From an uncultured Gammaproteobacteria bacterium (GTDB taxonomy: Bacteria > Patescibacteriota > Patescibacteriia > S139-126): DNA of 64,000 nt. The stretch lies in NCBI GenBank assembly GCA_964620905.1, contig CAZUKA010000001.1, positions 90,890-154,889 of the forward strand. The letters run 5' to 3'. A model generated the notes under the pieces. That model saw only the letters and a list, made by a program, of their open reading frames with translations, was not told where the DNA came from and ran no database searches. Positions 4,640 to 63,506 of this stretch are shown piece after piece. Both the position numbers and the translations under genes were made by a program. The number at the start of each line of letters is the position of its first letter. Within the stretch, counting starts at the first letter, position 1.

Positions 4640-7498
4640 ATGAAAAAAAGCTCGACCAAAAAAATAAAACCAGCGGTTAAATTGGTAGTCAAAAATACAA
4701 AGACAACAAAAAAAGTAAAGGCCAACCAAATACCGTCGAGACGAAAAGCAAAAATTTCCCGCCGTCAGTCAGGCACTAGACGGTTACTTAAAAATACTGG
4801 TTTTTTAGTTAAATCCAAACCAACCAAAGTAAAAAAAGTTTTGTCAAAATTATCTCGTTTAGAAGCTGATAGTTTGGCTTTATTTAATGATGATCATGTA
4901 ACCGTTTTTAAAGATTTACAAAAAAATAATTTTGACCAAAAACTAAAATTAGATTCAGCTGCAGATATTGTTAAATCTACCAGCAGTACAACCGAGATAG
5001 CTGGACAAAATGAGTTGATTGTTGATACACAACCAAATGAAATAGGAGCCAAAATTTTATCTGTGCGTCAGCCAGCTCAAAAAATTTCTTCTCCCCACGT
5101 GGTTGATTTAAAGACCAGAGTAGTTTATGAGGACAATAATTATCAGACCGTTGCTCCTCTGACCGCTGCTACTTGGGAAGAAAGAATTTACGCTTGGGAT
5201 AAGAAAATGCAAAATATCAAAACTAACTTTATTACTTCAGATTTGCGTCAACAACAGATTTATAAATCAAATCAAAATAAAAAAGTTGGTTTCTTTTCTA
5301 GGATGATTCGGCGTTTTAGTGGTTGGTTGAGTGCCGGATATTTTTCAATGGTTAATTCTTTTTCCAACTGGGGGGAGACCCAAACAGAAAAAATTTTACA
5401 AACTGCCGCCACTGCTGATACTGATGATTTTGTTGATCAAGTACGACCAGTAAAAAAACGTTTATCACTTTGGCCGCAGGAGCTAGCCGTATCAATGCGT
5501 CTATTTATCATTTTGGCAGTTATTTTAGTTTTACCTTTTCAAGTTTATAATTTTTATTCTGATGTAAAGACACAACAGGAAATGGTTTTGGGAGCTTCTT
5601 CAACAGTTTATAATGATTTTCAGGCAGGTTTCCAAGCCTTTGAAAATTTAGATTTCAGCCAAGCCAGTGATCGGTTTATATCAGCTCAACTTAACTTGCG
5701 CCAAGTTAACGATTGGGTGCAAAAATATCCTTCGTTTTTGTTTATGCTTGCCAAATTTATACCAGGTGCTGGGGGTGAGGTATCAAGTGGTTTAAATTTG
5801 ATGGCCGCGGGTGACAAGATGGCTCAATTGGGAGTGATGCTATCTGATTTATTTACTGATTTACAAGCCAATAGTGGTGATAATTTAGCTGCGCTACAAT
5901 CATTGGAGTCAGGCTTAAATCAAGCAGCGGTTATAATGCAAGAGATTGAACTGATTTTACAAAAAATTGATTTAACTAAATTGCCAGCCAATTATCAGGA
6001 ACAATTTAGTCAATTGAATGAGATTTTACCTATTGCCCGGCAGGTTTTACAGAATGCTAGCTTAGCCAGTGGTTTTAGTGCTGACTTTTTGGGTCGAGAA
6101 CAACCCATGCGTTATTTGTTGGTTTTTCAGAATAGTAATGAATTGAGACCAACAGGAGGTTTTATAGGTTCAATTGCTGAGGTAGATATTAAAGATGCCC
6201 GAGTGCAAAATTTTTATTTACCTCCCGGAGGTGTTTATGATTTACAAGGTAATCTAGAAGTTTTGTTAGCTGCGCCTGAACCGTTGCGTTTATTGAATGC
6301 CAACTGGCAGTTGCAGGATGCCAATTGGTTTTTTGACTGGCCCACTTCAGCAAAAAAAATTATGTGGTTTTACGAAAAGTCGGGTGGTCCGACAGTAGAT
6401 GGAGTAATAGCAGTCAACTCGCAGCTCTTACCAAAGTTATTGCAACTTACTGGTCCAATATATTTAGCGGAGTTTGATCAAATTTTAACGGCTGAGAACG
6501 TTATAGACCAGTTGCAGTATGAGGTAGAAATAAACTATGACCGGTCATTAAACCAACCCAAAAAAATAATTTCCCAACTCATGCCGATTTTACTTGATCG
6601 TTTACAAAAATTGCCGCCGACTGATTTTTTCAGTTTGTTTTCAGTTGTACATAATTCTTTGCAAGCCAAAGAAATTCAATTGTATCATACCAATAGTATG
6701 TTGCAGAAAAAAATTGATACTTTTGGTTTTGCTGGTCAAATTCAACCCACAAATAGAGACTATCTAGCTGTTGTTGATACCAATATCGGTGGTGGTAAAA
6801 CTGACCAAGTGATCGGCAGTCAAGTCTTACTGACTAGCCAAATCGGTCCGCTAGGGGATGTAGTGAATACTCTAAAAATAATCAAACGTCACGATGGTGA
6901 TCCCACTGATCAATTTACCGGTCAAATGTACCGAGATTATCTTCGGATTTATGTGCCACAAGGTAGTCGTTTGCTTTCGGCTAAAGGTTTTACTCCTCCC
7001 GCTCCAACTGAGTATAATCAACCAGCCTCTGGTTTTCAACGAGATGATTATCTTGCTCAGGTAGAAAATAATGAGCGTTTTGATTTAACAACTGGCACCC
7101 GAATTACCGATGAATATGATAAAACCGTATTCGGCAATTGGCTAACACTTAACCCGGGTGAACTAGTAGAAATTGAAATAGTTTATGCTTTGCCAAAAAA
7201 TATTACTTTTAAAAAACAAAATGATGGTAACTTTATTGTTGGCTTAATTGACCAGTTATTGTCTAAATTGAATTTGTCGTTTAGTGCTGAACGCGAAGTG
7301 GCTATGCATACTTTATTTTTACAAAAACAGTCTGGCCAACCACCTTACAATTTTTCGCAGGAAATTATCTTTCCTAGCTCTTGGGAAGTACAGACCAGTG
7401 AACTACTGAAAAATACTACTGCCCAAAGAGACAATCGAGTGTATTATCAAAACCTGATCAAAGCTGATTCTTTGTGGGGATTAATTTTTATCCGTTGA
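4640..7498 (+). CDS. Large membrane-anchored protein with a lysine-rich N-terminal tail; DUF4012-like (assignment recalled from the 'ELRPTGGFIGS' motif, needs checking)
   Basis: 952 aa. First ~75 aa very K/R-rich. Single TM near aa 285 ('LFIILAVILVLPFQVY'). Conserved block 'LLVFQNSNELRPTGGFIGSIAEVDIKDARVQNFYLPPGGVYDLQGN'. Confidence 0.5.
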   Translation: MKKSSTKKIKPAVKLVVKNTKTTKKVKANQIPSRRKAKISRRQSGTRRLLKNTGFLVKSKPTKVKKVLSKLSRLEADSLALFNDDHVTVFKDLQKNNFDQKLKLDSAADIVKSTSSTTEIAGQNELIVDTQPNEIGAKILSVRQPAQKISSPHVVDLKTRVVYEDNNYQTVAPLTAATWEERIYAWDKKMQNIKTNFITSDLRQQQIYKSNQNKKVGFFSRMIRRFSGWLSAGYFSMVNSFSNWGETQTEKILQTAATADTDDFVDQVRPVKKRLSLWPQELAVSMRLFIILAVILVLPFQVYNFYSDVKTQQEMVLGASSTVYNDFQAGFQAFENLDFSQASDRFISAQLNLRQVNDWVQKYPSFLFMLAKFIPGAGGEVSSGLNLMAAGDKMAQLGVMLSDLFTDLQANSGDNLAALQSLESGLNQAAVIMQEIELILQKIDLTKLPANYQEQFSQLNEILPIARQVLQNASLASGFSADFLGREQPMRYLLVFQNSNELRPTGGFIGSIAEVDIKDARVQNFYLPPGGVYDLQGNLEVLLAAPEPLRLLNANWQLQDANWFFDWPTSAKKIMWFYEKSGGPTVDGVIAVNSQLLPKLLQLTGPIYLAEFDQILTAENVIDQLQYEVEINYDRSLNQPKKIISQLMPILLDRLQKLPPTDFFSLFSVVHNSLQAKEIQLYHTNSMLQKKIDTFGFAGQIQPTNRDYLAVVDTNIGGGKTDQVIGSQVLLTSQIGPLGDVVNTLKIIKRHDGDPTDQFTGQMYRDYLRIYVPQGSRLLSAKGFTPPAPTEYNQPASGFQRDDYLAQVENNERFDLTTGTRITDEYDKTVFGNWLTLNPGELVEIEIVYALPKNITFKKQNDGNFIVGLIDQLLSKLNLSFSAEREVAMHTLFLQKQSGQPPYNFSQEIIFPSSWEVQTSELLKNTTAQRDNRVYYQNLIKADSLWGLIFIR

Positions 7499-10262: not shown

Positions 10263-12041
10263 ATGGATAGTAAACAAATTCGCAATTTTTGTATCATCGC
10301 CCATATTGACCATGGTAAATCAACTTTGGCTGATCGGTTGTTGGAAATTACCCACACGGTTGATAAAAGAAAAATGAAAGATCAACTTCTTGATCAAATG
10401 GATTTGGAAAGAGAGCGCGGAATTACTATCAAACTAACACCAGTTAGAATGCAGTGGCAGGGAGTAGAGCTTAATCTGATCGATACGCCGGGGCATGTTG
10501 ATTTTGCGTATGAAGTTTCTCGCAGTTTAGCGGCTGTGGAAGGGGCGTTATTGTTGGTTGATGCTACTCAAGGAATTGAAGCTCAAACTTTAGCAAATTT
10601 ATATTTGGCACAAAAACAAAATTTAGTGGTAATCCCAATAATCAATAAAATTGATTTACCAGCGGCGGATGTAAATACAGTTACGGAAGATTTAGTTAAA
10701 TTGTTAAAATGTTCTACCACCGATATTTTGTTGGCTTCAGGTAAAACTGGACAAGGGGTAGAGGGTATATTGAATACAATTATTGAACGGATCCCGCCGC
10801 CCCAGGGACAGGTTGATCTACCTACTCAAGCTTTAGTGTTTGATTCTTTTTATGATGAATATCGAGGAGTGGTGTCCTATGTCAGGTTGAAAAATGGTCA
10901 AATAAACAACAACGATAAAATAAAATTTCTTTCCAATCGCACTTTAACCGAAGCGCTGGAGGTTGGTTGTTTTTCTCCAACTATGACTAAGTTAGATAAA
11001 CTTTCAGCAGGCGAAATTGGTTATATAGTAACTGGTTTAAAACAAGTGGGTGAAGCTAAAATTGGCGATACCATAACCAACCACCTAAGTAGCCAAATCA
11101 CAGCGCTAGCTGGTTATGAAGAAATGAAACCAATGGTATATGCTGGTATTTATCCCAAAGAAGGTGATGCTTTTGCTGAGTTGCGCGAAGCGATGGAAAA
11201 ATTAAAATTAAACGACGCGGCTTTACTCTATGAACCAGAATCATCTTTAGCTTTGGGTTTTGGTTTTCGGTGTGGTTTTTTGGGGTTGTTGCATTTGGAG
11301 ATATTTAAAGAACGAATTAGACGAGAATATGAACTAGAAATAATAGTTACTACACCATCGGTGGCTTATCAAATAGTAGACAAAAAAGGTCAGAGTAAAA
11401 TTATTCATTCCCCAGAAGAATTTCCTTCGCAAGAAAAGCTGGAAAAAGTTTTTGAACCGATTATGCGGGTAGAAGTTTTAACACCTAAACAGTATGTCGG
11501 CAATGTAATGAAATTGGCCAGTGATAAGCGCGGTCAATATGTTGATACGACTTATTTGGATGAACAGAAGGCCATTTTGCATTATTTTTTACCACTTACC
11601 TCGCTGTTGGTTGATTTTTATGATACACTAAAAAGTATCAGTAGTGGTTATGCTAGTTTAAGCTATGATTTTTTTGATTATCAAGTCTGTGAATTGGTTA
11701 AACTTGATATTTTAGTAGCCGAAGAAAAGGTTGAGGCTTTATCGACCTTAGTCTATGAGGATCAAGCTTATCAGATAGCTAGACAAATTGTTAAGTCATT
11801 GAAAGAAGTTTTGCCTCGGCAGATGTTTGAGGTAAAAATCCAGGCTACGATTGGCGGTAAAGTGATTGCCAGCGAAAGATTGTCAGCACTGAGAAAAGAT
11901 GTCACAGCCAAACTTTATGGTGGTGATGTAACAAGAAAAAGGAAGTTATTGGAAAAACAGAAAAAAGGTAAAAAGAAAATGCAGCGCCGTGGTCGAGTAG
12001 AAATTCCCTCCGAAGCCTTTATTGCTTTATTGAAAAGATGA
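10263..12041 (+). CDS. lepA: Elongation factor 4 (LepA)
   Basis: 'IRNFCIIAHIDHGKSTLADRLLE', 'DTPGHVDF', 'NKIDL' G-motifs, and the LepA-specific C-terminus. Confidence 0.95.
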   Translation: MDSKQIRNFCIIAHIDHGKSTLADRLLEITHTVDKRKMKDQLLDQMDLERERGITIKLTPVRMQWQGVELNLIDTPGHVDFAYEVSRSLAAVEGALLLVDATQGIEAQTLANLYLAQKQNLVVIPIINKIDLPAADVNTVTEDLVKLLKCSTTDILLASGKTGQGVEGILNTIIERIPPPQGQVDLPTQALVFDSFYDEYRGVVSYVRLKNGQINNNDKIKFLSNRTLTEALEVGCFSPTMTKLDKLSAGEIGYIVTGLKQVGEAKIGDTITNHLSSQITALAGYEEMKPMVYAGIYPKEGDAFAELREAMEKLKLNDAALLYEPESSLALGFGFRCGFLGLLHLEIFKERIRREYELEIIVTTPSVAYQIVDKKGQSKIIHSPEEFPSQEKLEKVFEPIMRVEVLTPKQYVGNVMKLASDKRGQYVDTTYLDEQKAILHYFLPLTSLLVDFYDTLKSISSGYASLSYDFFDYQVCELVKLDILVAEEKVEALSTLVYEDQAYQIARQIVKSLKEVLPRQMFEVKIQATIGGKVIASERLSALRKDVTAKLYGGDVTRKRKLLEKQKKGKKKMQRRGRVEIPSEAFIALLKR

Positions 12042-12139
12042 TGAAGAAAAAAAATATTCAAAAATTGGTTTGGGTGGTGATTGCTGTTATGGTGACTTTT
12101 ACCATGGTTTTATGGTCGTTGGGAGCGGCTTATTTTTAA
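12041..12139 (+). CDS. Possible 32-aa hydrophobic peptide overlapping the lepA stop
   Basis: ATG overlaps the lepA TGA ('tgATGa' arrangement). 'MKKKNIQKLVWVVIAVMVTFTMVLWSLGAAYF*'. No independent support. Confidence 0.2.
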   Translation: MKKKNIQKLVWVVIAVMVTFTMVLWSLGAAYF

Positions 12140-12143
12140 TTTT

Positions 12144-12785
12144 ATGGTGGAGGTACCACAATATTTTCAAAAAAAATTACACCCTGATGAAGAGTTGATA
12201 CTTTTTGTCAGACCATTTGGTTTAGTTTATACTGGTTGGTTTTTGATGTCGGCAGTTTTACTTTTGGGCGCCCTGTATTATTTTTTCCATTTACTGCGTT
12301 TTGGATATTTTGGTATGTTTATTTTTGTGTTTGTATTTTTGTTGGGATTTTTTAGTTTGGTTAAAACTTTGGTAGTCTGGCGCTTAACTGCAGTAGTGGT
12401 TACCAATAAGCGTATTATTGATTTTGATCAACACGGTTTGTTCGTTCGTCAGTTGTCAGAAGCGCCACTGATCAACGTGCAAGATATAACTTTATCACAG
12501 AAAGGGGTTTGGGAATTACTATTTAATTTTGGTACCATTAAGATTCAGACCGCTGGCACCAGTGCCGTGTTGGAATTATCACATATTCGTTATCCCCGGC
12601 GGGTGCATGAAATTTTAGTTGAGTTAAAAGAACAGGTGAATAGTCAGTCAAAAACACAAACAAATGATTGGTCAACCGATCCGCAATGGCAAGCTTTTTT
12701 GCAGGTTTTGGAAAAAAAGAAACAGGAGATTGGTGAAAAAAATGTTAAGGAAGCTTTGGCCGAATGGTTAAAAAAAGAAGACTGA
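12144..12785 (+). CDS. Membrane protein with a bacterial PH (YdbS/YdbT-like, DUF304) domain
   Basis: Two TM helices followed by 'VVTNKRIIDFDQHGLFVRQL...GTIKIQTAG'. Confidence 0.55.
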   Translation: MVEVPQYFQKKLHPDEELILFVRPFGLVYTGWFLMSAVLLLGALYYFFHLLRFGYFGMFIFVFVFLLGFFSLVKTLVVWRLTAVVVTNKRIIDFDQHGLFVRQLSEAPLINVQDITLSQKGVWELLFNFGTIKIQTAGTSAVLELSHIRYPRRVHEILVELKEQVNSQSKTQTNDWSTDPQWQAFLQVLEKKKQEIGEKNVKEALAEWLKKED

Positions 12786-19263: not shown

Positions 19264-19337
19264 TGGGGGATCGTCTAATGGTAGGACAGCGGCCTTTGGA
19301 GCCGTCAATCGTGGTTCGAGTCCACGTCCCCCAGCCA
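19264..19337 (+). tRNA. tRNA-Gln (anticodon UUG)
   Basis: Acceptor tggggga/tccccca, D-arm gtct-aatggta-ggac, anticodon arm gcggc-ctTTGga-gccgt, T-arm cgtgg-ttcgagt-ccacg, CCA encoded. Confidence 0.85.
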
Positions 19338-19444: not shown

Positions 19445-20227
19445 ATGAATAATATTGTATCATTATATAACGAAGTGATTAATTATGTACTTGCAGAGGG
19501 CAAGGTTATTGCGGGGAAATGTGGTGTTATACCTGATATAGGTGTGACTAAAAAATATGTAACAGAAGAAGATATCCGTATTGAACGTGAATTAAAAAGT
19601 ATTATTCAAAGTTTTGATTCAAGTCACGAGATTTATGCAGAAGAAGAAAATAATGATTGGAAAGAAAGTAAAAATGTTTGGGTGATTGATCCAATATCAG
19701 GTACGCGTACATTCGTTAAAGGAATTCCTCACTATGGAATGGTTGTCTCGCATGTATTAAATGGGAAACCTCAGTTTGCAGTCGTGTATGATCCATCAAT
19801 TGATGAGTTGTTTAAAGTAACTCGGGGTGGGGGTGCATTTTTGAATGACAAACAGATTCATATGAATAATGATGATAATGAATTTAAATCGATACGATTG
19901 ATACTCAACATGACTCATAAACAATTAGGAAATAATCTTTCAAAAGAAATGATTATGAAATTAAGTGGATCTAATTTGTTTAGGAATTCAAATTCATTTG
20001 CAGTAAATTATTGTTGGGTTGCATGTGGGAGATATGATGGCGTTATAGCTTTAACAAAGGATAGTTTTCCAGAAGTTGCGGGGAGTCTTTTTATTCAAGA
20101 AGCTGGGGGTATATTTACAAATATTAATGGTAATAAAGAGATTGGTCCGGATGATAATTTTTTTGTTGGTGGTAATCAACAGAGTTATGCTCAATTGTTT
20201 GAATTAGTAAAAGATTTAAATAAGTAA
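19445..20227 (+). CDS. Inositol monophosphatase family protein (IMPase/SuhB/CysQ-like), paralog 1
   Basis: 'EEENNDWK...VWVIDPISGTRTFVKGIPHYG' (metal-binding D-P-(I/L)-D-G-T motif). C-terminal 'WD..AG' region present. Confidence 0.8.
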   Translation: MNNIVSLYNEVINYVLAEGKVIAGKCGVIPDIGVTKKYVTEEDIRIERELKSIIQSFDSSHEIYAEEENNDWKESKNVWVIDPISGTRTFVKGIPHYGMVVSHVLNGKPQFAVVYDPSIDELFKVTRGGGAFLNDKQIHMNNDDNEFKSIRLILNMTHKQLGNNLSKEMIMKLSGSNLFRNSNSFAVNYCWVACGRYDGVIALTKDSFPEVAGSLFIQEAGGIFTNINGNKEIGPDDNFFVGGNQQSYAQLFELVKDLNK

Positions 20228-20265
20228 AATTATAAATTCGTCCACAAGCTTCATCCACGATAAAT

Positions 20266-21069
20266 ATGAAAAATTTAAGTCCCATTACTAACTTTCTAAT
20301 TGAGCTTTCAAAAGAAGCATCTGTAATTTTATTAAAGCATTTTTCACCCCTTGGAGTTTTAACAGAAATGAAGGAAGAAATGTCACCTGTGACTAAGGCA
20401 GATATTGAAGTAAACGAGATGGTAATAAAGAAAGTGTGTGATAATTATCCTGAATACGGGGTATTGGCAGAAGAGATATCAACCGATATAACAAAATCAA
20501 ATAAGCTATTTGTTGTTGACCCGCTTGATGGTACACATATGTTTGCGATTGGTGCGACTATGTTTGGTTTTTCGGCTGCTGTTGTCGAAGATGGTGTTAG
20601 CATTGCAGGAGTATTGATGAACCCTCTTGCTAAGAGAACACTTGTTGCTGAAAAAGGTAAGGGGGCATATTTAGTTGAAACACAAACCAAGATTCACGTG
20701 AGTGATAAAGACACTCTGGATCAAGCACTTATAAATGCAGGATGGAAAGATGATCGGGTAACATCTCTTTTACATGCTCTAGGTGCGCGAACGCCCGAGG
20801 TATATTCTATTTGCGAGTCGGCATCTTTAGTAGCACTTTCAGCTTTTGATGGGGATATATTTACTGGACATTATCCCCACGATGTTGCAGCTTTGAAGAT
20901 TGTGGTTGAGGAAGCGGGCGGTAAGGTAACTGATATAAATGGAATGGAACAAAGATATGATAGGGAAATTAGGGGTGCAATTGTTTCTAATGAGAAACTT
21001 CATACCCGGCTTTTAGAGATTGCAAAAAAATCTGGTATTGCGGATGATTTACCAAGTAATAATAAATAG
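20266..21069 (+). CDS. Inositol monophosphatase family protein, paralog 2
   Basis: 'LFVVDPLDGTHMFAIG', 'GHYPHDVAALKIVVEEAGGKVTDINGM'. Close paralog of 23264..24040. Confidence 0.8.
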   Translation: MKNLSPITNFLIELSKEASVILLKHFSPLGVLTEMKEEMSPVTKADIEVNEMVIKKVCDNYPEYGVLAEEISTDITKSNKLFVVDPLDGTHMFAIGATMFGFSAAVVEDGVSIAGVLMNPLAKRTLVAEKGKGAYLVETQTKIHVSDKDTLDQALINAGWKDDRVTSLLHALGARTPEVYSICESASLVALSAFDGDIFTGHYPHDVAALKIVVEEAGGKVTDINGMEQRYDREIRGAIVSNEKLHTRLLEIAKKSGIADDLPSNNK

Positions 21070-21183
21070 TCTATCTACTTGCTTAGTTCGATTCTAACTT
21101 CGTCTACAAGCTTCAGCCACGACTTTTACTTATGCCATTCCTCTAGGAGTGGTTTTTTGATAAAATTAAATAGAAATATAAAT

Positions 21184-22470
21184 ATGAATAAATTGACAAA
21201 AGAGATTAAAGAATTTAGATGGGAGAATCGTGTGTATAGGACCGGATTTTTACAGTCGAAAGATATTTGTAATGAAGCTGAAATTATACCTATAAAACTA
21301 ACTAAAAATTATTTTGTGAAATATCAAAATATTTTTTGGATACAAGACTACAATTTATATGATGAGAATGCAACCAAAAGTTTTGTAAAAGTATTTAATA
21401 AAGCATTCAAAGAAAATAAAAGTTGGCCTTTAAGTCTTTTTTATGAATTAGAGAGAACTGGAAAGAAAGTAAATAATTTTATTACTAAACTAAAAAAGAA
21501 TAAAAACAAGACAAGTCTAATATTGTTTAGAGAATATGTAGAATTATTACACGCTGTACAAAAGTATTATGTTATTGCTGTACCACTTGTTAGTTATTGT
21601 GAAAAAGCTTTAAAAATATATCCAAAAGTATTAGAAAATTATTCCAAACCTTATAAAGAACTCGAAGTTAGTAAATTTAATTACTCAAAAAATACAAAAT
21701 TAAAATTTGCTTGGTTAAAAACTGCTTACAATATTATTGATGAAGTCTCAGATAAAGATGTATTACAAATGAATACAAAAAAAGATTATAAAGAGAAAAT
21801 TTTATTAATTCCAAAAAGAATTAAATATTTAGTAGTCGCGCTACAAGTAGGTATATACTTACGTAATCGAATAAAAGAATTGTCTCAAAAATTATGGTAT
21901 TATATCGAACCCGTAGCAAAGCAACTCGCAAAGGAAATGAAAATTTCTCGTGACGATTTTTTTCTTTTAACTCACCAAGAAGTTGAACAATGTTTAAAAG
22001 GAAATGGTTATATCAATTCGCCTGAATTTGCTAGACGAAGGAAGTCTTTTGTTGTGGGTTTTTGGAAGGGTAAAAAGCAGCTTATATCAGGTACCGAGGC
22101 AAGTTCGTTAGTAAATGTATTTAGAAATAAATCAAAATCTGGAGATTATGTGAAGGGAACGGTGGCATATAAAGGCAAAGTAAAAGGAATAGTAAAAATT
22201 ATTTTAGATAAAAAAGATTTTAAAAAAATTAAAAAAGGGAACATTCTTGTTACATCAATGACCACTCCAAATTTTATTGTATTGATGAAAAAAGTGGCAG
22301 CAATTGTCACTGATGAAGGTGGTTTGTCATGTCACGCGGCGATCGTGAGTCGAGAATTGAAAATACCTTGTATTATTGGCACCAAAGATGCAACTAAAAT
22401 TTTATCAAACAGGGATTATGTTGAAGTGGATGCAATCGATGGTATAGTAAGGGTTTTAAAGCGAGGGTAG
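21184..22470 (+). CDS. Protein with a C-terminal PEP-utilizing enzyme mobile (swivel phosphohistidine) domain; N-terminal ~330 aa of unknown function
   Basis: 'GGLSCHAAIVSRELKIPCIIGTKDATKIL' matches the G-G-x-(T/S)-x-H-A-A-I-x-(A/S)-R-E-x-x-I-P signature of PEP-utilizers. Start taken at 'MNKLTKEIK' (21184); the ORF-track start at 21079 reads through an upstream repeat motif. Confidence 0.6.
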   Translation: MNKLTKEIKEFRWENRVYRTGFLQSKDICNEAEIIPIKLTKNYFVKYQNIFWIQDYNLYDENATKSFVKVFNKAFKENKSWPLSLFYELERTGKKVNNFITKLKKNKNKTSLILFREYVELLHAVQKYYVIAVPLVSYCEKALKIYPKVLENYSKPYKELEVSKFNYSKNTKLKFAWLKTAYNIIDEVSDKDVLQMNTKKDYKEKILLIPKRIKYLVVALQVGIYLRNRIKELSQKLWYYIEPVAKQLAKEMKISRDDFFLLTHQEVEQCLKGNGYINSPEFARRRKSFVVGFWKGKKQLISGTEASSLVNVFRNKSKSGDYVKGTVAYKGKVKGIVKIILDKKDFKKIKKGNILVTSMTTPNFIVLMKKVAAIVTDEGGLSCHAAIVSRELKIPCIIGTKDATKILSNRDYVEVDAIDGIVRVLKRG

Positions 22471-22588: not shown

Positions 22589-23230
22589 ATGAATATAGAT
22601 AAACTCGCTAAAATTATTTGGGAATATCATAAGATGCATCAAAAGTTAAAAAAGGTTGATTGTATTTTTGTACTTGGTAGTAATGACGTAAGGGTAGCGG
22701 AATATTCCGCTGATATATTTTTAAAAGGATATGCGTCAAATATAATATTCTCAGGAAATGTAGGAATATTGAGTAAAGATATTTTTGATAAACCAGAAGC
22801 AGAAATTTTTGCTGATATAGCTATTAAACACGGTGTCCCAGAACAGAAAATTATTATTGAAAATAAATCAACGAATACTGGTGAAAATATAATATTTACG
22901 AAAAAAATAATTAGTGAACTGGGTTTTAATTTTGATTCATTTATATTAGTTCAAAAACCGTACATGGAACGACGTGCTTATGCAACATTTAAAAAAATAT
23001 GGCCTGAAAAAGATTGTATAGTTACTTCTCCACCTATTAATTATAAAGATTATCCAAATCAATATATTTCAAAGGAAATGTTAATTAATATTATGGTTGG
23101 TGATTTACAAAGAATAAAAATATATGCATCCAAAGGGTTTCAAATATCTCAGGATATACCAAAGGAAGTTTGGCAAGCCTATGAAAAGCTTGTTCATTTA
23201 GGATATACCAATCATTTAATTAGCAACTAA
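22589..23230 (+). CDS. DUF218 (YdcF/ElyC/SanA-like) family protein
   Basis: 'IIIENKSTNTGENIIFTKKII' fits the conserved E..S.nT.eN block of DUF218. Confidence 0.55.
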   Translation: MNIDKLAKIIWEYHKMHQKLKKVDCIFVLGSNDVRVAEYSADIFLKGYASNIIFSGNVGILSKDIFDKPEAEIFADIAIKHGVPEQKIIIENKSTNTGENIIFTKKIISELGFNFDSFILVQKPYMERRAYATFKKIWPEKDCIVTSPPINYKDYPNQYISKEMLINIMVGDLQRIKIYASKGFQISQDIPKEVWQAYEKLVHLGYTNHLISN

Positions 23231-23263
23231 TTTTAAGATATTTTATTTTAATAATATTTATTT

Positions 23264-24040
23264 ATGTATAACCACAAAAATTTTGCAATCAATTTAGCCC
23301 GCGAAGCTGGAAAAATTATTAAAACCAATTTTACACTGGGGATGAAAAAAGAATGGAAAGATGATAATACCCCGCTCACGGCAACTGATTTAAAGATAAA
23401 TCAAATGGTAATTGATGCTGTAAAAAAAGAATATCCTAGTTTTGGTATTATTGCCGAGGAGGGTAGTGATTATTCTAATCAAGAATATACTTGGGTTTGT
23501 GATCCGGTTGATGGAACCATTGCTTTTTCTCACGGTGTACCGACATGTATGTTTTTATTGGCTCTGGTTAAAGAAGGTAAAAGTATATTGGGCGTTGCTT
23601 ATGATCCGTTTATGGATAATATGTATTTTGCTGAAAAGGGTAAAGGTGCTTTTTGCAATGATAAAAGTATTAGAACATCGGGACATACAAAACTTGATTC
23701 AAAAGCAGTAATAGATACATTACTTTGGAAAGAAGCTAAATATCAGTTCCCAAGATTAGTTGATAATTTAAGAGAAAAAGGGGTATTAGATTTTAGTTTG
23801 CCCTCGATAGGTTATGTTGATATGTTGGTTGCTTGTGGTGAGTTTACTGCAAGTATTTTTCCAGGACATTATGCATGGGATGTAGCTGTAACAAAAATAA
23901 TAATCGAAGAAGCCGGGGGAAAAGTAACTGATCTTTATGGCGAAGAATTTGATTTTAGGAATGAAGTAAAAGGACATATTGCATCTAATGGATTGGTACA
24001 TGCTGAATTATTAGAACTAGTACAGACGTATTTAGAATAA
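23264..24040 (+). CDS. Inositol monophosphatase family protein, paralog 3
   Basis: 'YTWVCDPVDGTIAFSHGVP', 'GHYAWDVAVTKIIIEEAGGKVTDLYGEE'. Confidence 0.8.
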   Translation: MYNHKNFAINLAREAGKIIKTNFTLGMKKEWKDDNTPLTATDLKINQMVIDAVKKEYPSFGIIAEEGSDYSNQEYTWVCDPVDGTIAFSHGVPTCMFLLALVKEGKSILGVAYDPFMDNMYFAEKGKGAFCNDKSIRTSGHTKLDSKAVIDTLLWKEAKYQFPRLVDNLREKGVLDFSLPSIGYVDMLVACGEFTASIFPGHYAWDVAVTKIIIEEAGGKVTDLYGEEFDFRNEVKGHIASNGLVHAELLELVQTYLE

Positions 24041-24071
24041 ATTTGAATTTTTTTAAATATTAAATTTTTAT

Positions 24072-25052
24072 ATGAAAATAATGATTAAAGATTTAGAAAA
24101 TTGTTGTGTTAAGATTTTAATGAAAAAAGGGCTTTCTAAAAAAGAGGCTCTTCTTGTTTATAACGATTTTTTAGACTCTGAGCTAGAAGGAAAACCAGAT
24201 CACGGATTCCAGTCTTTTTTGGAATTTGGGATTAAATTAGTACAACCACAAGAAAGACCTAAAATTATTAAACAAAGTAATTCTTTTTTATTTATTGATG
24301 GTAAAAACAACTACGGACAAATTGTTTGTGATAAATATATACCCATTCTAATTAAAAAAGCTAGGAGAAGCGGCGTAGCTATTATGGGTATAAAAAATAT
24401 GCATTCATATCGTTCTCCTGGCAAATTCGCACAAATAATAGCTAAAAAAAATTTAATTGGAATAATAATGAATTATGGTGGTTGGCCAAGAATAGCACCT
24501 TATGGATCTATTGATCCTATTTTTGGAACCAATCCAATCGCTATAGGTATTCCTTCTAAAAATTTTCCTGTGGTACTTGATATGGCAACTTCAAAAGTAG
24601 CCCTAATGAAGATAAGAATGGCTATGAAATTAAGAAAAAAAATTCCTTATGGTTGGGCAATTGATAAAAACGGAGAACCAACCAATGATCCAAATAAAGT
24701 TTTTGAAGGAGCAGTTTTACCGTTTGGAGAACATAAAGGATCAGGATTAGCTTTGATGGTAGAGTTATTAACCAAAACAATTTATAGTATAAATATCAAT
24801 GATAGAAATAAAGCAAACAGAGGATTTTTATTTATATGTATAGACCCTTCAATTTTTCAAAATATAAATAAATATAAAATTGAAGTAGAAAGAGTAATTA
24901 GAAAAATTAAAAAGTCGAGAAAAGCAAAAGGAAAAAGTGAAATTTTTATTCCTGGTGAATATTCTTATAAAAAATTTTTAAAAAATAAAAAAAGAAAATA
25001 TATTGAGATTGATAAAAAAACACTTTTTGAAATTAGATCTAATTCGCTTTGA
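24072..25052 (+). CDS. Ldh_2-family (malate/L-lactate/L-sulfolactate dehydrogenase-type) oxidoreductase
   Basis: 'NPIAIGIP', 'LPFGEHKGSGLALMVELLT' typical of the Ldh_2 family. Confidence 0.7.
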   Translation: MKIMIKDLENCCVKILMKKGLSKKEALLVYNDFLDSELEGKPDHGFQSFLEFGIKLVQPQERPKIIKQSNSFLFIDGKNNYGQIVCDKYIPILIKKARRSGVAIMGIKNMHSYRSPGKFAQIIAKKNLIGIIMNYGGWPRIAPYGSIDPIFGTNPIAIGIPSKNFPVVLDMATSKVALMKIRMAMKLRKKIPYGWAIDKNGEPTNDPNKVFEGAVLPFGEHKGSGLALMVELLTKTIYSININDRNKANRGFLFICIDPSIFQNINKYKIEVERVIRKIKKSRKAKGKSEIFIPGEYSYKKFLKNKKRKYIEIDKKTLFEIRSNSL

Positions 25053-25069
25053 TGTAAAGTTTATTTAAT

Positions 25070-25717
25070 TTGATTTTTATGGAATATATTTTAGGAGTTC
25101 ATATACCAATACCACCCAAGCTGGCAAAATTAATTGTCTCGGTTAAAAGTAAAAATTATATTAATTATCCGGGAAATTATAAATATCAACCACATATAAC
25201 AATATATCTTTGTAGATTTACAAAAGAAAAATTTAGAAAATTATTGAGAAATCTAAAAACAAATAATATTAAATCATTTGTATTGAAAATAGGTAAACTT
25301 AAACAACAAAGTGATGGCAAAATATTATTTATATATTTGTCGCTAGTTAAAAACGAATATCTAATTTCATTCCATAAATATATTTTAAAAATGGCCAACC
25401 CATTACGTGGTATGTTAATAAGATCAAAAGATAAAATTAAGATAAAGTCAGGAGACTATACAAATATTCAAAAAAGATATTTGCTAAAATATGGGTACCA
25501 TCGAGTTTTAAAATTTTTTATTCCTCATATTACCTTAGGTGAATTAGCTGCAAATGATATTAAAAAATTGAAACATTTAAAAAGTGATTTAAATAAATTA
25601 AAAGGAATTGAGTTTAGAATAAATTATTATATCGTCGGTTTGTATAAATATGACATCAAAAAGAAAGATTATTGTGGTACTGTAATAGAAGAGAAAATTG
25701 ATTTGATATTTAATTGA
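25070..25717 (+). CDS. 2H phosphoesterase superfamily protein (LigT/2'-5' RNA ligase-like or cyclic phosphodiesterase-like)
   Basis: Two H-x-T-x motifs: 'QPHITIYL' and 'IPHITLGE'. Confidence 0.55.
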   Translation: MIFMEYILGVHIPIPPKLAKLIVSVKSKNYINYPGNYKYQPHITIYLCRFTKEKFRKLLRNLKTNNIKSFVLKIGKLKQQSDGKILFIYLSLVKNEYLISFHKYILKMANPLRGMLIRSKDKIKIKSGDYTNIQKRYLLKYGYHRVLKFFIPHITLGELAANDIKKLKHLKSDLNKLKGIEFRINYYIVGLYKYDIKKKDYCGTVIEEKIDLIFN

Positions 25718-39382: not shown

Positions 39383-40489
39383 ATGAAAATTGCTCAAATA
39401 TCAGCAGTTTTTCCCCCCTATCGGGGAGGGATTGGACAAGTGGCTTATAATTATACCCAAGGTTTATATGATTTGGGTGAAAAAGTAGAGGCTTTGACGA
39501 TTAACTATGGTCTTAAGCAAACCTACAAATTTCCTGTTCACTATCTTCGCGCTTGGATACGTTGGGGAAAAGCAGGTTTTTGTCCTCAATTATTATGGCG
39601 ACTGAATAAATATGATATTGTACAATTGCACTATCCGGCTTTTGGCCTGGCAGAAACTGTTTGGTTGTGGCGTCGTTTAAATAAGAATAAAAAATTATTT
39701 TTATTTTATCATCACGATTTAATTGGACAAGGTATTTTAGGTAATATATTTTCTTTCTATCAAACATTTTTTTTGCCACTATTACTGCGACAAGCCGACG
39801 TAATCATGGTGTCTTCATTTGATTATGCAGCAAGTAGTCAAATAAAAAAATATTATCAACAACGACCAGAAAAATTTGTCGCTCTTCCTTTTGGTGCTAA
39901 AGAAATTTATCAACCAGCCCAAGACAGAATTGCCCAACAACCTATTGAGAAAAATATTTTGTTTGTAGGTGGACTGGATCGTAATCACTATTTTAAAGGT
40001 GTAGATAAATTAATATCTGCCTGTGGTTTATTGCACTTTAGTAATTGGCGTCTACTGATTGTGGGCAGTGGAGAGTTAGTTGATCATTACCAGTCCTTAG
40101 CTGAAGAGTTAGGTATTGCAGATAAAGTTGTTTTTAGGGGAGGAATAGTCGATGAAGAGTTGGTACGTTTGTATCAACAAGCAACGGTTTTTTGTTTACC
40201 CAGCATTGATCAGACTGAAGCTTTTGGTATTGTTTTAGTGGAAGCGATGGCCTGCGGACTTCCGGTGATTGCCTCTGATTTGCCCGGCGTGAGATCAGTA
40301 GTTGAAAATGGTCAATCTGGTTATTTAGTTAAACCTAAAGATGTTAAGGACTTAGCAAGTAAAATTGAAAAAATTTTAACTGATGACAATTTGGGAAAAT
40401 TTTTCAGTCAGCAGTCTAGCCTGCGGGTGGAAAAATTTTATCGTTGGCCGGAAATTATCAAAAAATTAAAAACCATCTATCAAGTTTGA
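39383..40489 (+). CDS. Glycosyltransferase family 4
   Basis: 'EAFGIVLVEAMACGLPVIASDLPGVRSVVENGQSGYLV'. Confidence 0.8.
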   Translation: MKIAQISAVFPPYRGGIGQVAYNYTQGLYDLGEKVEALTINYGLKQTYKFPVHYLRAWIRWGKAGFCPQLLWRLNKYDIVQLHYPAFGLAETVWLWRRLNKNKKLFLFYHHDLIGQGILGNIFSFYQTFFLPLLLRQADVIMVSSFDYAASSQIKKYYQQRPEKFVALPFGAKEIYQPAQDRIAQQPIEKNILFVGGLDRNHYFKGVDKLISACGLLHFSNWRLLIVGSGELVDHYQSLAEELGIADKVVFRGGIVDEELVRLYQQATVFCLPSIDQTEAFGIVLVEAMACGLPVIASDLPGVRSVVENGQSGYLVKPKDVKDLASKIEKILTDDNLGKFFSQQSSLRVEKFYRWPEIIKKLKTIYQV

Positions 40490-40491
40490 AT

Positions 40492-42717
40492 ATGTTTGGG
40501 GTAGAAACTGTCAATCAATATAAAAAAATTATTAACTTGGTTTTTGTAGTTAACTTGGTTTTTTTAATTATTAATTTTTTATTTTACAAAATTTCCTTTT
40601 TGGTTTTTTTTGGTTTTTTACTTTGCCTTATTTTAGCTGGAATTTATTGGGGGACGCTGTATCAACGCTTATTATCCTTACGAATTTTTACTTCTTTGGT
40701 TTTTGGTTATTTGACTTTGTTTTATTTATTAAGTTTTACTATTTCTATTTTTGTTAATTTTTACAAATATGATGAACTATTTTCTTTGCTGTCAGTTGTG
40801 GTACTGGGTGTAATTTCTTATTTAATTGGTTTTAAATATAATTGGCTTGATGATTTACCTGAATCAAAAACAGCGGAGTTGGTTATCAGACCTCCCTTTT
40901 ACTTGGTGGTAGCTTTACCATTATTGTTGTTTGTGAGCTTAGTGCTTTTATTTTTGTCACGGAGCGAAGAATATTTGATTACTCCCTGGCAGGTGATTCC
41001 TAAAATTTACATTTATTTATTTTTATTAATCACTTTTACGGTTAGTTCCTTGTTGTTCAGCCGATTGAAAACTGGCGTAGTAATATTTTTAATTATTATT
41101 CACTCTTATTTTTTACATGCTTATTTACCCTTAGTATATGAGACCGGTTTTGGTGGTGATAAATGGCGTCATTTAGCCTCAGAAAAATTTTTGGCTGCTG
41201 GTGAAATCTATAGCCCAAGTTTAATTGGCGAGCCGATTAAAATGGTGACTTTGGGTCCAATTAGTTTACCCGAAGTATTGGTAGCTGGCAATAAAACTTC
41301 ATATGGAAATCAATGGGGCTTAACTTTACTACTGAGTGAATTTTTATCAATAGATATTTTTTGGATTGATTATTGGTTAATTTTTGGGTTGTGGTCGTTT
41401 TTTGTGCCCTTACTTTTATATCATTTGTCGGGGTTGATATATAATAAAAAACAGTTTAGGTTGTTAGTATCGTTTTTGCCCACATTGTTTTACACCTTAC
41501 AAGTATTTGGTGCTATCACCATCCCAGTATCTTTGGGGGCAATTTATTTTCTGCTGATTTTATACTTGTGGTTTTATTATTTGCGTTACCAGGAAAGGCG
41601 AGTAAGAAATTTGGCAATAATTTTAACTTTATTTTCTTATTTGGGTTATGTTCTTTATTTTATTTTATTATTAGTAATTGGTTTGGGATGCTTACTTATT
41701 GGGGAAATAAAAAAAATAAAAATACAACGATTTTTATTAATTTTATTTATCGCTGGATCCTGTTTGGTTATTCCGGCATTGGAATCATTGATGGGCTATG
41801 GCAGTTTAAAGGCAGAAGTTTTTTCTTCGCCTCAAGGAATAATTTATCAAACGGCTGAAGCTTTTGGAACTTTAACTGGGGTGGTAGCTTTTATTCCTAG
41901 ACCCACTCATATTGATCAAGGCAACTGGCTTTATAATCAAACTCGACAAACCCAGAGTCAGGCTTCTTTGTTTGGTCTGCGCATTCTTCCCTTTTTTTTC
42001 ACCGGCTTGGTTTGGTTATTGGCTTTATTGGGTATACAAAAAATTAGAAAGCTTGATAATAAAAAAATTGCTTGGTTTATCTTGGTAGCTTTAGGAATTA
42101 TGATTTTTAGTTATGTTTTTTCCTGGTATTTTATGACGGGCAATCATATTTTAGCTAGACGTTTGGATGTAACAATAACTTTTTTTTGGTTGATTCTTGT
42201 GGCTTTGGGAATTTTTTATTTACTGGAAAATGTTTTTACCAAGGTTGATGAGTTTACAAAAGTTTATGCTATTGCTGTTATGTTGGCGGTAGTGGCAGCG
42301 TCGACTTATAGTTCTGGGCCGGTTTTAGAAGTAGTAACTAAAGACGAAGTTTCGGCGGCTGAATATGTTTGGGAAAAAATTGATAAAAACTCACCTTATT
42401 GTGTAGTAGCCAATACTTGGCCATTATTGGGGCTTGAATATGTTTCCGGTAGGAAAATAATTGCTGGCGGGTTTCCGGTTTATTTGGAGTATGCTCAGCC
42501 AGAAAGAGTAAAAATTTTTGAAGGTTTGATAAGAAAACCAAAGACTGACGATTGGTTAAAAAAAGCTTTTGAGGTAACTAAAAGTAGTGAATGTTGGTAT
42601 CTAACAGAAAAGAGATGGATGTCTGATAAAGTGTGGGAAGAAAATCTAGAAATTTTTGGGCCACCGCAAGCGCAGGTTGGGAAAGTCTTTATTTGGCAAA
42701 TAAAAGCAGGGGAATAG
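40492..42717 (+). CDS. Large polytopic membrane protein, putative GT-C-type glycosyltransferase or glycan polymerase/ligase
   Basis: About 15 TM helices followed by a ~150-aa soluble C-terminal domain. Sits in the glycan cluster. No sequence-specific motif recognised. Confidence 0.45.
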   Translation: MFGVETVNQYKKIINLVFVVNLVFLIINFLFYKISFLVFFGFLLCLILAGIYWGTLYQRLLSLRIFTSLVFGYLTLFYLLSFTISIFVNFYKYDELFSLLSVVVLGVISYLIGFKYNWLDDLPESKTAELVIRPPFYLVVALPLLLFVSLVLLFLSRSEEYLITPWQVIPKIYIYLFLLITFTVSSLLFSRLKTGVVIFLIIIHSYFLHAYLPLVYETGFGGDKWRHLASEKFLAAGEIYSPSLIGEPIKMVTLGPISLPEVLVAGNKTSYGNQWGLTLLLSEFLSIDIFWIDYWLIFGLWSFFVPLLLYHLSGLIYNKKQFRLLVSFLPTLFYTLQVFGAITIPVSLGAIYFLLILYLWFYYLRYQERRVRNLAIILTLFSYLGYVLYFILLLVIGLGCLLIGEIKKIKIQRFLLILFIAGSCLVIPALESLMGYGSLKAEVFSSPQGIIYQTAEAFGTLTGVVAFIPRPTHIDQGNWLYNQTRQTQSQASLFGLRILPFFFTGLVWLLALLGIQKIRKLDNKKIAWFILVALGIMIFSYVFSWYFMTGNHILARRLDVTITFFWLILVALGIFYLLENVFTKVDEFTKVYAIAVMLAVVAASTYSSGPVLEVVTKDEVSAAEYVWEKIDKNSPYCVVANTWPLLGLEYVSGRKIIAGGFPVYLEYAQPERVKIFEGLIRKPKTDDWLKKAFEVTKSSECWYLTEKRWMSDKVWEENLEIFGPPQAQVGKVFIWQIKAGE

Positions 42718-62117: not shown

Positions 62118-63506
62118 CTAATTTGGTAATTCTTCCCAAGTGATAAATGAATAATCACCACTGGTAGGAAAGTATGGTGGTGGTGAAAATATCAATTTAC
62201 TGTCAAAAATACTTTTTGTATTGGTATAACCATCAATAACATTTATACCCGATACCCAAGTCCAGGTCCAAATTTTATTGGTAATAATTCCTCCGTAAAC
62301 TTCAATATAATTTTTAATTGAGCGACTATAATAAAGTCCCCGATAAACTCTTCCTTTTTGAGCTAGTAATATGGCATCAATAGATAAATTTGTCGGTGCA
62401 TGACGAGGTACTTGTACATTTTTTTGGGCAATCAGTCCTAAACTATGATTTCCGTCCCTGGCTAAGTAACGAAGATTATTATTGATAAAAATGCTAGTGT
62501 TAGTGAGTGGCGAGTCAGGAAAGCGCGCTGAAACTAAAGTAACCTTACCATTGATTGTGCCTTGAACCCAAACGTTGTCTTCAATAAAAATTAGTCCATT
62601 ACTAGGTAAAGGGTAGTTACCAACAAAACTTGTACTGTCAATTCGCTCGGATTTATATTCATAATCTGTGAAGTTATCATTAATTTGTAAAATGGCAGGG
62701 TATAATTGAGTAACACGGTAGATATCATAAGTGCTATTATCACGGAAAGAAACTAAATAACCATAATTTTTTGGTTGATAATAATGCCCATTGTTTTGGG
62801 CGGCTGTTTTCATGTTTGCTAGATCCAATGTCAAAGTATTGAAATCAATTTCTGGTACAGGGAAATCCCAGAGATCATTGTTTGGGCCAATACCCCAAAT
62901 ACCTGATTTTTCTTCATCACTACAGCCATGAGCCGTTGTGCAGATGTAGGTTTCTTTGGCAGAAGTTACCAGTGAATCATTTTCTCCATCCATTCTAATA
63001 CCGCCGTTTGAGTGCATTTCTCCTGAAACTGATTCATTTGATCCTAACCAGATATCTGAATTTGTTAAAAAAGAATAGCGTGCAAGTGAAGGTTTACCAT
63101 ATTTAACCTCAATAGTTCTTTTTAGTTGAGGATATTTGTTGGTCCAACCAGTAGAACGAATCGTAACTACAGTCGAACCAACTGGTGGCGGATCAATTTC
63201 CAGACTGTATTTACCCACGCTATTGCTAGTTGGATCAGAGTAGTCAAAAAGATAAGGACCAGGTTGGCCGGTGTTATTGGTAAAATCATTTGGTGCGTGA
63301 GCTAAATGCCAGCGATAATAGTTTATTCCGGCTTCGGCTATATGTAAGGCTTGGATTTTTGCTAGGTATTGATCATTTAATTTTCTTTGATAAAAAACAA
63401 CTCCCATTAATCCAGTTATAACAACCAAAAAAATTCCTGTAAAAACTACAATTAAAATCAATACGCCACCTTTTTTATTTGATATAATATTTGTATTTAA
63501 GTTCAT
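62118..63506 (-). CDS. PilX-N-like large minor-pilin/pilus-associated protein
   Basis: N-terminal hydrophobic segment 'KKGGVLILIVVFTGIFLVVITGL', then 'YLAKIQALHIAEAGINYY' (A-x-A-E-A-G block seen in PilX_N-type proteins). 462 aa. Confidence 0.45.
   Translation of the reverse strand: MNLNTNIISNKKGGVLILIVVFTGIFLVVITGLMGVVFYQRKLNDQYLAKIQALHIAEAGINYYRWHLAHAPNDFTNNTGQPGPYLFDYSDPTSNSVGKYSLEIDPPPVGSTVVTIRSTGWTNKYPQLKRTIEVKYGKPSLARYSFLTNSDIWLGSNESVSGEMHSNGGIRMDGENDSLVTSAKETYICTTAHGCSDEEKSGIWGIGPNNDLWDFPVPEIDFNTLTLDLANMKTAAQNNGHYYQPKNYGYLVSFRDNSTYDIYRVTQLYPAILQINDNFTDYEYKSERIDSTSFVGNYPLPSNGLIFIEDNVWVQGTINGKVTLVSARFPDSPLTNTSIFINNNLRYLARDGNHSLGLIAQKNVQVPRHAPTNLSIDAILLAQKGRVYRGLYYSRSIKNYIEVYGGIITNKIWTWTWVSGINVIDGYTNTKSIFDSKLIFSPPPYFPTSGDYSFITWEELPN

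Follow-up and report, generated by a model that had tools for sequence, protein, structure and literature searches.

The 64-kb stretch analysed here (the window; contig CAZUKA010000001.1, from a genome placed in the Patescibacteriota) carries on its forward strand, at 21184-22470, an ATG-to-stop open reading frame (ORF) whose product ends in a phosphohistidine swivel domain; this gene, its product (the swivel protein) and the family of modules to which it belongs are the subject of the present analysis. The original prediction had drawn attention to a swivel-domain ORF of 429 amino acids at this position, and the ORF is real: it was recovered together with its sequence motif and its match to PF00391, and its length needs amending only in that 429 counts codons including the stop, the protein itself having 428 residues. 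A TTG at 21079 would lengthen the reading frame, but the ATG at 21184 is preferred because the N-termini of 58 homologues line up with it. The AlphaFold2 model of the 428-residue protein is of high confidence (pLDDT 91.6, pTM 0.89). Searching 5.8 billion proteins yielded some 80 homologues of full length (420-470 residues, 35-52% identity) from Patescibacteria and DPANN archaea, whose annotation goes no further than 'PEP-utilizing enzyme' or 'phosphohistidine swiveling domain-containing protein'; DPANN archaea (Nanoarchaeota, Woesearchaeota) are among the closest. These homologues, and the 12 residues of the N-terminal domain that are invariant, argue that this is no chance ORF.

The swivel domain occupies residues 322-428 (22147-22467, forward strand), and the only Pfam match in the protein lies within it, to the mobile domain of phosphoenolpyruvate (PEP)-utilizing enzymes (PF00391, residues 349-420, E 1.1e-24). 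The catalytic-histidine signature proposed from the first reading is present as GGLSCHAAIVSRELKIPCIIG at residues 379-399, with His384 (codon 22333-22335, forward strand) lying at the end of T376-D-E-G-G-L-S-C-H384; this segment conforms to the T/S-x-x-G-G-x-x-x-H signature described for HpeH, rifampin phosphotransferase (Rph) and PEP synthase, and is invariant in 59 sequences. As had also been anticipated, Pfam finds neither an ATP-grasp domain (PPDK_N, PF01326) nor a PEP/pyruvate-binding TIM barrel (PEP-utilizers_C, PF02896) in the protein. Its swivel domain is most similar to those of archaeal PEP synthases, but PEP synthase and pyruvate, phosphate dikinase (PPDK) combine an ATP-grasp domain and a TIM barrel with a central swivel, whereas here both are lacking and the swivel is C-terminal. 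Assignment to PEP synthase or PPDK was accordingly rejected, as model NF005057 scores 120.6 bits against a cut-off of 598 (residues 311-422) and neither PF01326 nor PF02896 is matched, and assignment to Enzyme I of the PEP-dependent phosphotransferase system was rejected on a score of 42.9 bits against a cut-off of 341.7, over the swivel region only (TIGR01417). In NCBIfam and PDB sequence searches, matches to PEP synthase, PPDK, Enzyme I and pyruvate kinase are confined to the swivel, and those to Rph and to 'PEP synthase' of the PRK06241 type extend upstream only to about residue 245.

The N-terminal domain (residues 1-318; 21184-22137, forward strand) is mostly helical, and no Pfam family covers residues 1-340. 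When residues 1-318 were compared exhaustively by HMMER with 1.84 billion cluster representatives, only 34 matches were obtained, 20 of them at E<=1e-30, and the subfamily defined by this domain is therefore small. That the domain is functional is argued by its own 12 invariant residues (R19, G21, W52, Y118, Y129, E140, W177, Y182, R227, K231, E232 and W238). By fold comparison, Rph of Listeria monocytogenes (PDB 5FBS, 5FBT, 5FBU and 5HV1) is the only solved structure that matches both domains, and it is also the top match for the N-terminal domain alone, so that homology to the rifampin-binding domain of Rph is found where no sequence family applies. Its fold, its place in the domain order and its candidate catalytic motif mark the domain as a compact, diverged Rph-type substrate-binding domain; it had initially been called unrecognised, which holds for its sequence and fails for its fold. 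The distance from Rph is nevertheless considerable: Rph is a single chain of 867 residues with a fused ATP-grasp domain and a rifampin-binding domain of about 428 residues with a hydrophobic pocket, identity across the N-terminal domain is 7%, and Glu667 of Rph probably corresponds to Asn228. Membership of Rph proper was rejected (NCBIfam NF041857; 67.4 bits against a cut-off of 999, residues 249-425 only, no ATP-grasp domain).

Two segments of this domain contain candidate catalytic residues. In Rph of L. monocytogenes, mutagenesis established that the second phosphotransfer, from His825 to rifampin, requires Arg666-Glu667, and Lys670 and Gln337 also touch the phosphate; the Arg-Glu...Lys 'block 9' is kept even in distant Rph clades that have lost rifampin binding. 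In the swivel protein, the segment R227-N228-R229-I230-K231-E232 (21862-21879, forward strand), in which R227, K231 and E232 are invariant and N228 and R229 at least 90% conserved, is a candidate motif for transfer from histidine to substrate. A MAFFT alignment of 100 superfamily members places R227, N228 and K231 in the same columns as R669, E670 and K673 of a Streptomyces Rph, the equivalents of R666, E667 and K670 in the Listeria enzyme, and the lysine column is the best conserved of this region. The R227 and K231 residues are likewise paired with Arg and Lys when the protein is aligned by hhalign to a 412-residue homologue from Rhodococcus. The default hhalign run against Rph ends at residue 255, and a permissive run placed the R227/K231 region in a different register at low confidence; for that reason the equivalence of R227 and K231 to the block 9 Arg and Lys is probable but unproven, and our residue-level comparison with Rph draws on the 100-sequence alignment and on spacing arguments instead of direct hhalign. 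One such argument concerns G21-F-L-Q24 (21244-21255, forward strand; G21 invariant, Q24 at least 90% conserved), since G-x-x-Q occurs at a similar distance past the end of the ATP-grasp domain in a Streptomyces Rph and in P0125, a fused relative described below. On this spacing in the fused proteins, Q24 is a candidate counterpart of the 'block 1' Gln, which in Rph touches the phosphate being transferred.

The closest functional parallels are the two-component dikinases HpeHI, CreHI and phenylphosphate synthase (PpsAB). Like the swivel protein, HpeH, CreH and PpsA pair an Rph-type substrate-binding domain with a C-terminal swivel carrying T/S-x-x-G-G-x-x-x-H and have no ATP-grasp in the same chain; theirs is a separate subunit, and a counterpart is predicted for the swivel protein, with no such gene adjacent. 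The Hpe pathway includes a phosphatase, HpeD, as the swivel gene's own cluster includes phosphatase genes. The differences are also plain. HpeH, CreH and PpsA have some 600-640 residues rather than 428, and the substrate-binding domain of about 320 residues is not detectable by sequence as related to theirs, the PRK08296-type NCBIfam models matching only at residues 316-426. They and Rph have Met at position -2 from the histidine, where the swivel protein has Ser382 in a Ser-Cys pair. HpeH, CreH and PpsA occur in aromatic-degrading bacteria, whereas the hosts here belong to the candidate phyla radiation (CPR) and DPANN and the context contains neither a carboxylase nor aromatic catabolism genes. 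A further parallel is the 412-residue Rhodococcus homologue, WP_257606259.1 of plasmid pLW3 in Rhodococcus sp. LW-XY12, an uncharacterised 'PEP-utilizing enzyme' of similar size and the same two-part architecture, which matches residues 215-428 with an hhalign probability of 99.2% and has no detectable similarity over the first 215 or so. Its cluster (L087, 84727-93227) holds three acyl-CoA dehydrogenases, an AMP-binding enzyme and a gene annotated as 'pyruvate, phosphate dikinase', and is probably another two-component dikinase pathway.

Together these comparisons make it likely that the swivel protein binds the substrate and carries the phosphohistidine as the HpeH/PpsA/CreH-type subunit of a small-molecule dikinase of the Rph class that is split in two. 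It would then be a so far uncharacterised representative of an enzyme type already known, and the family of such modules has undergone great expansion in ultra-small bacteria and archaea. The original prediction of a phosphotransfer partner acting on a small molecule thus survives as regards phosphotransfer but not as a new kind of kinase or phosphocarrier, since two-component Rph-type dikinases have already been described. By analogy with those enzymes, a separate ATP-grasp protein of about 312-340 residues, consisting of PPDK_N only, would bind ATP, and the swivel would dock on it so that His384 takes the beta-phosphate, releasing AMP and inorganic phosphate. The swivel would then swing back to the N-terminal domain of the same chain; there R227, K231 and probably Q24 may position the phosphate for transfer to a hydroxyl of a small molecule held in an aromatic and polar pocket. 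The label 'PEP-utilizing enzyme' can thereby be replaced with a testable function, namely the specificity-determining subunit of an ATP-dependent dikinase. To our knowledge, few substrates of Rph-type dikinases have been identified (rifamycins, phenol, cresol and hydroxyphenylethanones), and CPR and DPANN genomes constitute a large and very diverse reservoir of modules beyond them. As these organisms rely on hosts for metabolites, the substrates of their modules could reveal what they take up, activate or detoxify.

The association of this subfamily with an ATP-grasp partner is established by three independent observations in other organisms. The 788-residue P0125 is a Rosetta-stone fusion in which PPDK_N (residues 22-319, E 2.7e-99) is followed by the same N-terminal domain and then the swivel, the domain order of Rph; residues 6-423 of the swivel protein align to its residues 329-776 at 36% identity (E 7e-88). 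In a Saccharibacteria locus (L006), a PPDK_N gene (331 residues), two module genes (469 and 515 residues), a gene of unrecognised type and, last, an orthologue of the swivel gene (40% identity) follow one another in this order, co-directional and tightly packed. In a Parcubacteria locus (L007), an orthologue (43% identity) and the PPDK_N gene downstream of it (342 residues) have exactly between them an MNT/HEPN pair (11414-12437), which resembles a toxin-antitoxin system (a nucleotidyltransferase with a helix-turn-helix (HTH) domain, and HEPN). Genes for proteins of 343, 363 and 375 residues that adjoin modules in L006 and in a further locus (L090) were considered and set aside, having no detectable kinship to either module or ATP-grasp. 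The partner proteins of the superfamily belong to PF01326, as do the ATP-grasp domains of PEP synthase and PPDK.

Within the window itself, Pfam searches of 39 ORFs (all those of at least 247 residues and some neighbours) detected no ATP-grasp domain, and a profile built from ten CPR ATP-grasp proteins found in all six frames of the 64 kb nothing better than a 55-residue fragment at E 0.028. The case that had been named as contrary, in which the N-terminal domain would supply the ATP-grasp of a split PEP synthase and the other half would lie close by, therefore did not materialise, as the N-terminal domain is not an ATP-grasp, there is no TIM barrel and no partner occurs in the 64 kb; a split PEP synthase is rejected on these grounds. 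Six of nine subfamily contexts similarly have no ATP-grasp within 8-10 kb. Absence from the window nonetheless says little, because modules can sit some 15 kb from the only nearby ATP-grasp: in a 677-kb CPR contig (CAYYDR010000001.1), one ATP-grasp gene has three modules next to it and a further two about 15 kb off, past a block of genes resembling a type IV secretion system (PrgI, TraC-like, TraG-type ATPase) that is directly downstream of the ATP-grasp gene and between the two module groups (L091, 190712-203650). Standalone PPDK_N-only proteins of about 312 residues are, moreover, very common in Patescibacteria (at least 8000 matches at E<=1e-20 in a profile search of 5.8 billion proteins), and a partner may thus be encoded elsewhere in this genome.

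The gene lies in a co-directional, forward-strand run that begins just past a tRNA-Gln (19264-19337), and a functional link with its flanking genes would be consistent with this arrangement. Upstream are two genes of the inositol monophosphatase (IMPase) family, IMPase-1 (19445-20227; PF00459, E 1.6e-35) and, directly before the swivel gene, IMPase-2 (20266-21069; PF00459, E 7.1e-37); downstream follow, by Pfam, a DUF218 gene (22589-23230), IMPase-3 (23264-24040; PF00459), an Ldh_2 oxidoreductase (24072-25052) and a LigT-like 2H phosphoesterase (25070-25717). The three phosphatases on which the original prediction based its proposal of phosphotransfer are thus present as three IMPase-family genes, and the connection that it drew receives some support from relatives: among 149 immediate neighbours of modules in 61 loci, 10 are phosphatases of three unrelated superfamilies (four His_Phos_1, three metallophosphoesterases, three HAD) and eight are TrmB-type sugar-specific regulators, while 149 matched control genes, drawn from the same loci at distances of more than 4 kb, include fewer than two of any one of these families. 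One-sided Fisher tests of neighbours against control give p values of 0.0008-0.043 for phosphatases and 0.0035-0.018 for TrmB, the range depending on unseen singletons. The Hpe pathway offers a precedent, in that the dikinase HpeHI is followed by a carboxylase that acts only on the phosphorylated intermediate and then by the HAD phosphatase HpeD. The substrate of the swivel protein may well be a polar hydroxylated metabolite that, once phosphorylated, would be converted further and eventually lose its phosphate to the neighbouring phosphatases; its polar character is tentatively suggested by the mixture of aromatic and polar invariant residues and by the sugar-type regulators.

The wider organisation of these modules is a newer and less certain finding than the assignment of the gene itself. 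A survey of 82 CPR and DPANN loci of about 20 kb each counted 197 swivel modules outside PEP synthase against 32 ATP-grasp domains, with two ATP-grasps in just one locus and as many as 11 modules for a single ATP-grasp. When paralogues from one locus are compared, median identity is 22.8% in the substrate-binding domain and 55.3% in the swivel, and ATP-grasps compared between different genomes are 57.1% identical, a pattern which would fit one conserved ATP-binding component serving many specificity modules. In Candidatus Doudnabacteria (MFEY01000007.1; L003/L004, 1-9380), six tandem module genes of 456-495 residues have very divergent N-terminal domains and no ATP-grasp within 8 kb, and arrays of 5-11 modules also occur in L009, L021, L024, L028, L029, L039, L041 and L048. 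Some uninterrupted ORFs join one ATP-grasp, mostly N-terminal, to 2-10 modules, and in all of these modules, which combine a swivel with a variable domain for substrate binding, the GGxxxHAA motif is intact. Giant ORFs of this kind, with 3-10 modules, are found in DPANN archaea, where the largest encodes 4768 residues (L015, 5483-19789); others are at 4154-12289 in L058, 8318-14032 in L038, 2109-7112 in L041 and 247-6228 in L049, the last with its ATP-grasp at an internal position (residues 522-831). Relatives of about 680 residues (P0084-P0120) were considered as ATP-grasp fusions and rejected, since they have two swivel domains and no PPDK_N; two-swivel relatives without an ATP-grasp are also found in L012 (9290-11899) and L031 (2-2584), some with weak HTH or Epimerase_2-like matches.

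We found no description in the literature of this CPR and DPANN module family or of many modules per ATP-grasp. It is quite possible, and we propose it tentatively, that the swivel gene is a dispersed module of an undescribed combinatorial phosphorylation platform in ultra-small symbionts, in which one conserved ATP-grasp would charge many interchangeable modules. Each module would then unite a hypervariable substrate-binding domain with a conserved swivel; modules are seen singly, in tandem arrays, or up to ten together in one polypeptide with one ATP-grasp. The frequent adjacency of modules to phosphatases and TrmB-type regulators is a further feature of the family. Were such a platform to exist, genome-reduced organisms could trap, activate or neutralise diverse host-derived small molecules via a single ATP-binding component.

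The main competitor to a split dikinase is an orphan module that works without an ATP-grasp, either as a ping-pong transphosphorylase that passes phosphate from a phosphorylated donor metabolite to an acceptor, both bound at the one site of its N-terminal domain, or with its histidine charged in trans by another PEP-utilising enzyme. The lack of an ATP-grasp from the 64 kb and from six of the nine subfamily contexts would accord with this, as would the capacity of HpeH alone to move phosphate from 4-phosphoacetophenone to acetovanillone, and a swivel that is nearer those of PEP synthases (about 60% identity) than that of Rph. However, other organisms have members of this subfamily either fused to an ATP-grasp or sharing an operon with one, modules may lie about 15 kb from the only one nearby, and standalone ATP-grasp proteins abound in Patescibacteria, such that we regard independence from an ATP-grasp as rather improbable. 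Somewhat less probable again is an Rph-like inactivating kinase, which would share the mechanism of the split dikinase but would protect an episymbiont against antibiotics or xenobiotics, rather than serve metabolism or scavenging. Rph is indeed the closest solved structure, and hypervariable substrate-binding domains (22.8%) beside conserved swivels (55.3%) and ATP-grasps (57.1%), in arrays of up to 11, fit the recognition of many ligands. Yet the NCBIfam Rph model reaches just 67 of the required 999 bits, the hydrophobic pocket of Rph contrasts with the mixed aromatic and polar invariant residues of this family, models of defence systems give no match, and recurrent phosphatase and TrmB-type neighbours are better suited to metabolism.

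A non-catalytic remnant, whether a decaying fragment of PEP synthase or Rph or a purely regulatory phosphocarrier, appears very improbable. The protein is short, lacks domains for binding nucleotide and PEP or pyruvate, and is encoded in a low-GC segment that may have been acquired; but the ORF is intact, the fold is confidently predicted, the histidine motif is complete and the candidate catalytic R...K motif retained, and some 80 homologues of full length exist, in which 12 positions of the N-terminal domain do not vary. The segment in question has a GC content of 21-32% across 21.2-25.8 kb against 35-39% in its flanks (swivel gene 0.285; genes from 22589 to 25717, 0.23-0.34; window 0.342), and spans the swivel gene, the DUF218 gene, IMPase-3, Ldh_2 and the LigT-like gene. 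Cross-domain acquisition is possible, because the closest homologues include DPANN archaea. The direct repeats include no att-like copies of the tRNA-Gln such as would mark the ends of an island, Rfam identified only the tRNA across the leader and cluster, and the PADLOC (defence) and PHROGs (phage) libraries gave no informative matches.

A 32-nt element precedes both IMPase-2 and the swivel gene. Its first copy (20229-20260, forward strand) fills the gap between IMPase-1 and IMPase-2, just upstream of the latter, and its second (21091-21122, forward strand; direct repeat D3, 88% identical to the first) is part of the swivel gene's leader. Across the 64 kb, the 24-nt core TTCGTCYACAAGCTTCAKCCACGA is present at these two places and nowhere else, against an expectation of 0. 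IMPase-1 and IMPase-2 share 23% protein identity and no nucleotide similarity; a duplication remnant was rejected on that basis, and the same divergence argues that the element is independently conserved. It has no match in Rfam, and may represent a shared operator or leader that co-regulates IMPase-2 and the swivel gene. Between the second copy and the start codon, a consensus scan found a terminator-like hairpin (21134-21153) with a T-run (21134-21159 overall, forward strand), which is at best faintly indicative, there being five such sites in the region against 2.4 expected.

The window as a whole resembles CPR (Patescibacteria) DNA in its GC content of 34% and its many genes for envelope glycosyltransferases. 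Within an envelope-biogenesis region rich in such genes are two large ORFs with no Pfam match (40444-42717, forward strand, 757 residues; 62118-63506, reverse strand, 462 residues) and one that matches DUF4012 only (4640-7498, forward strand, 952 residues).
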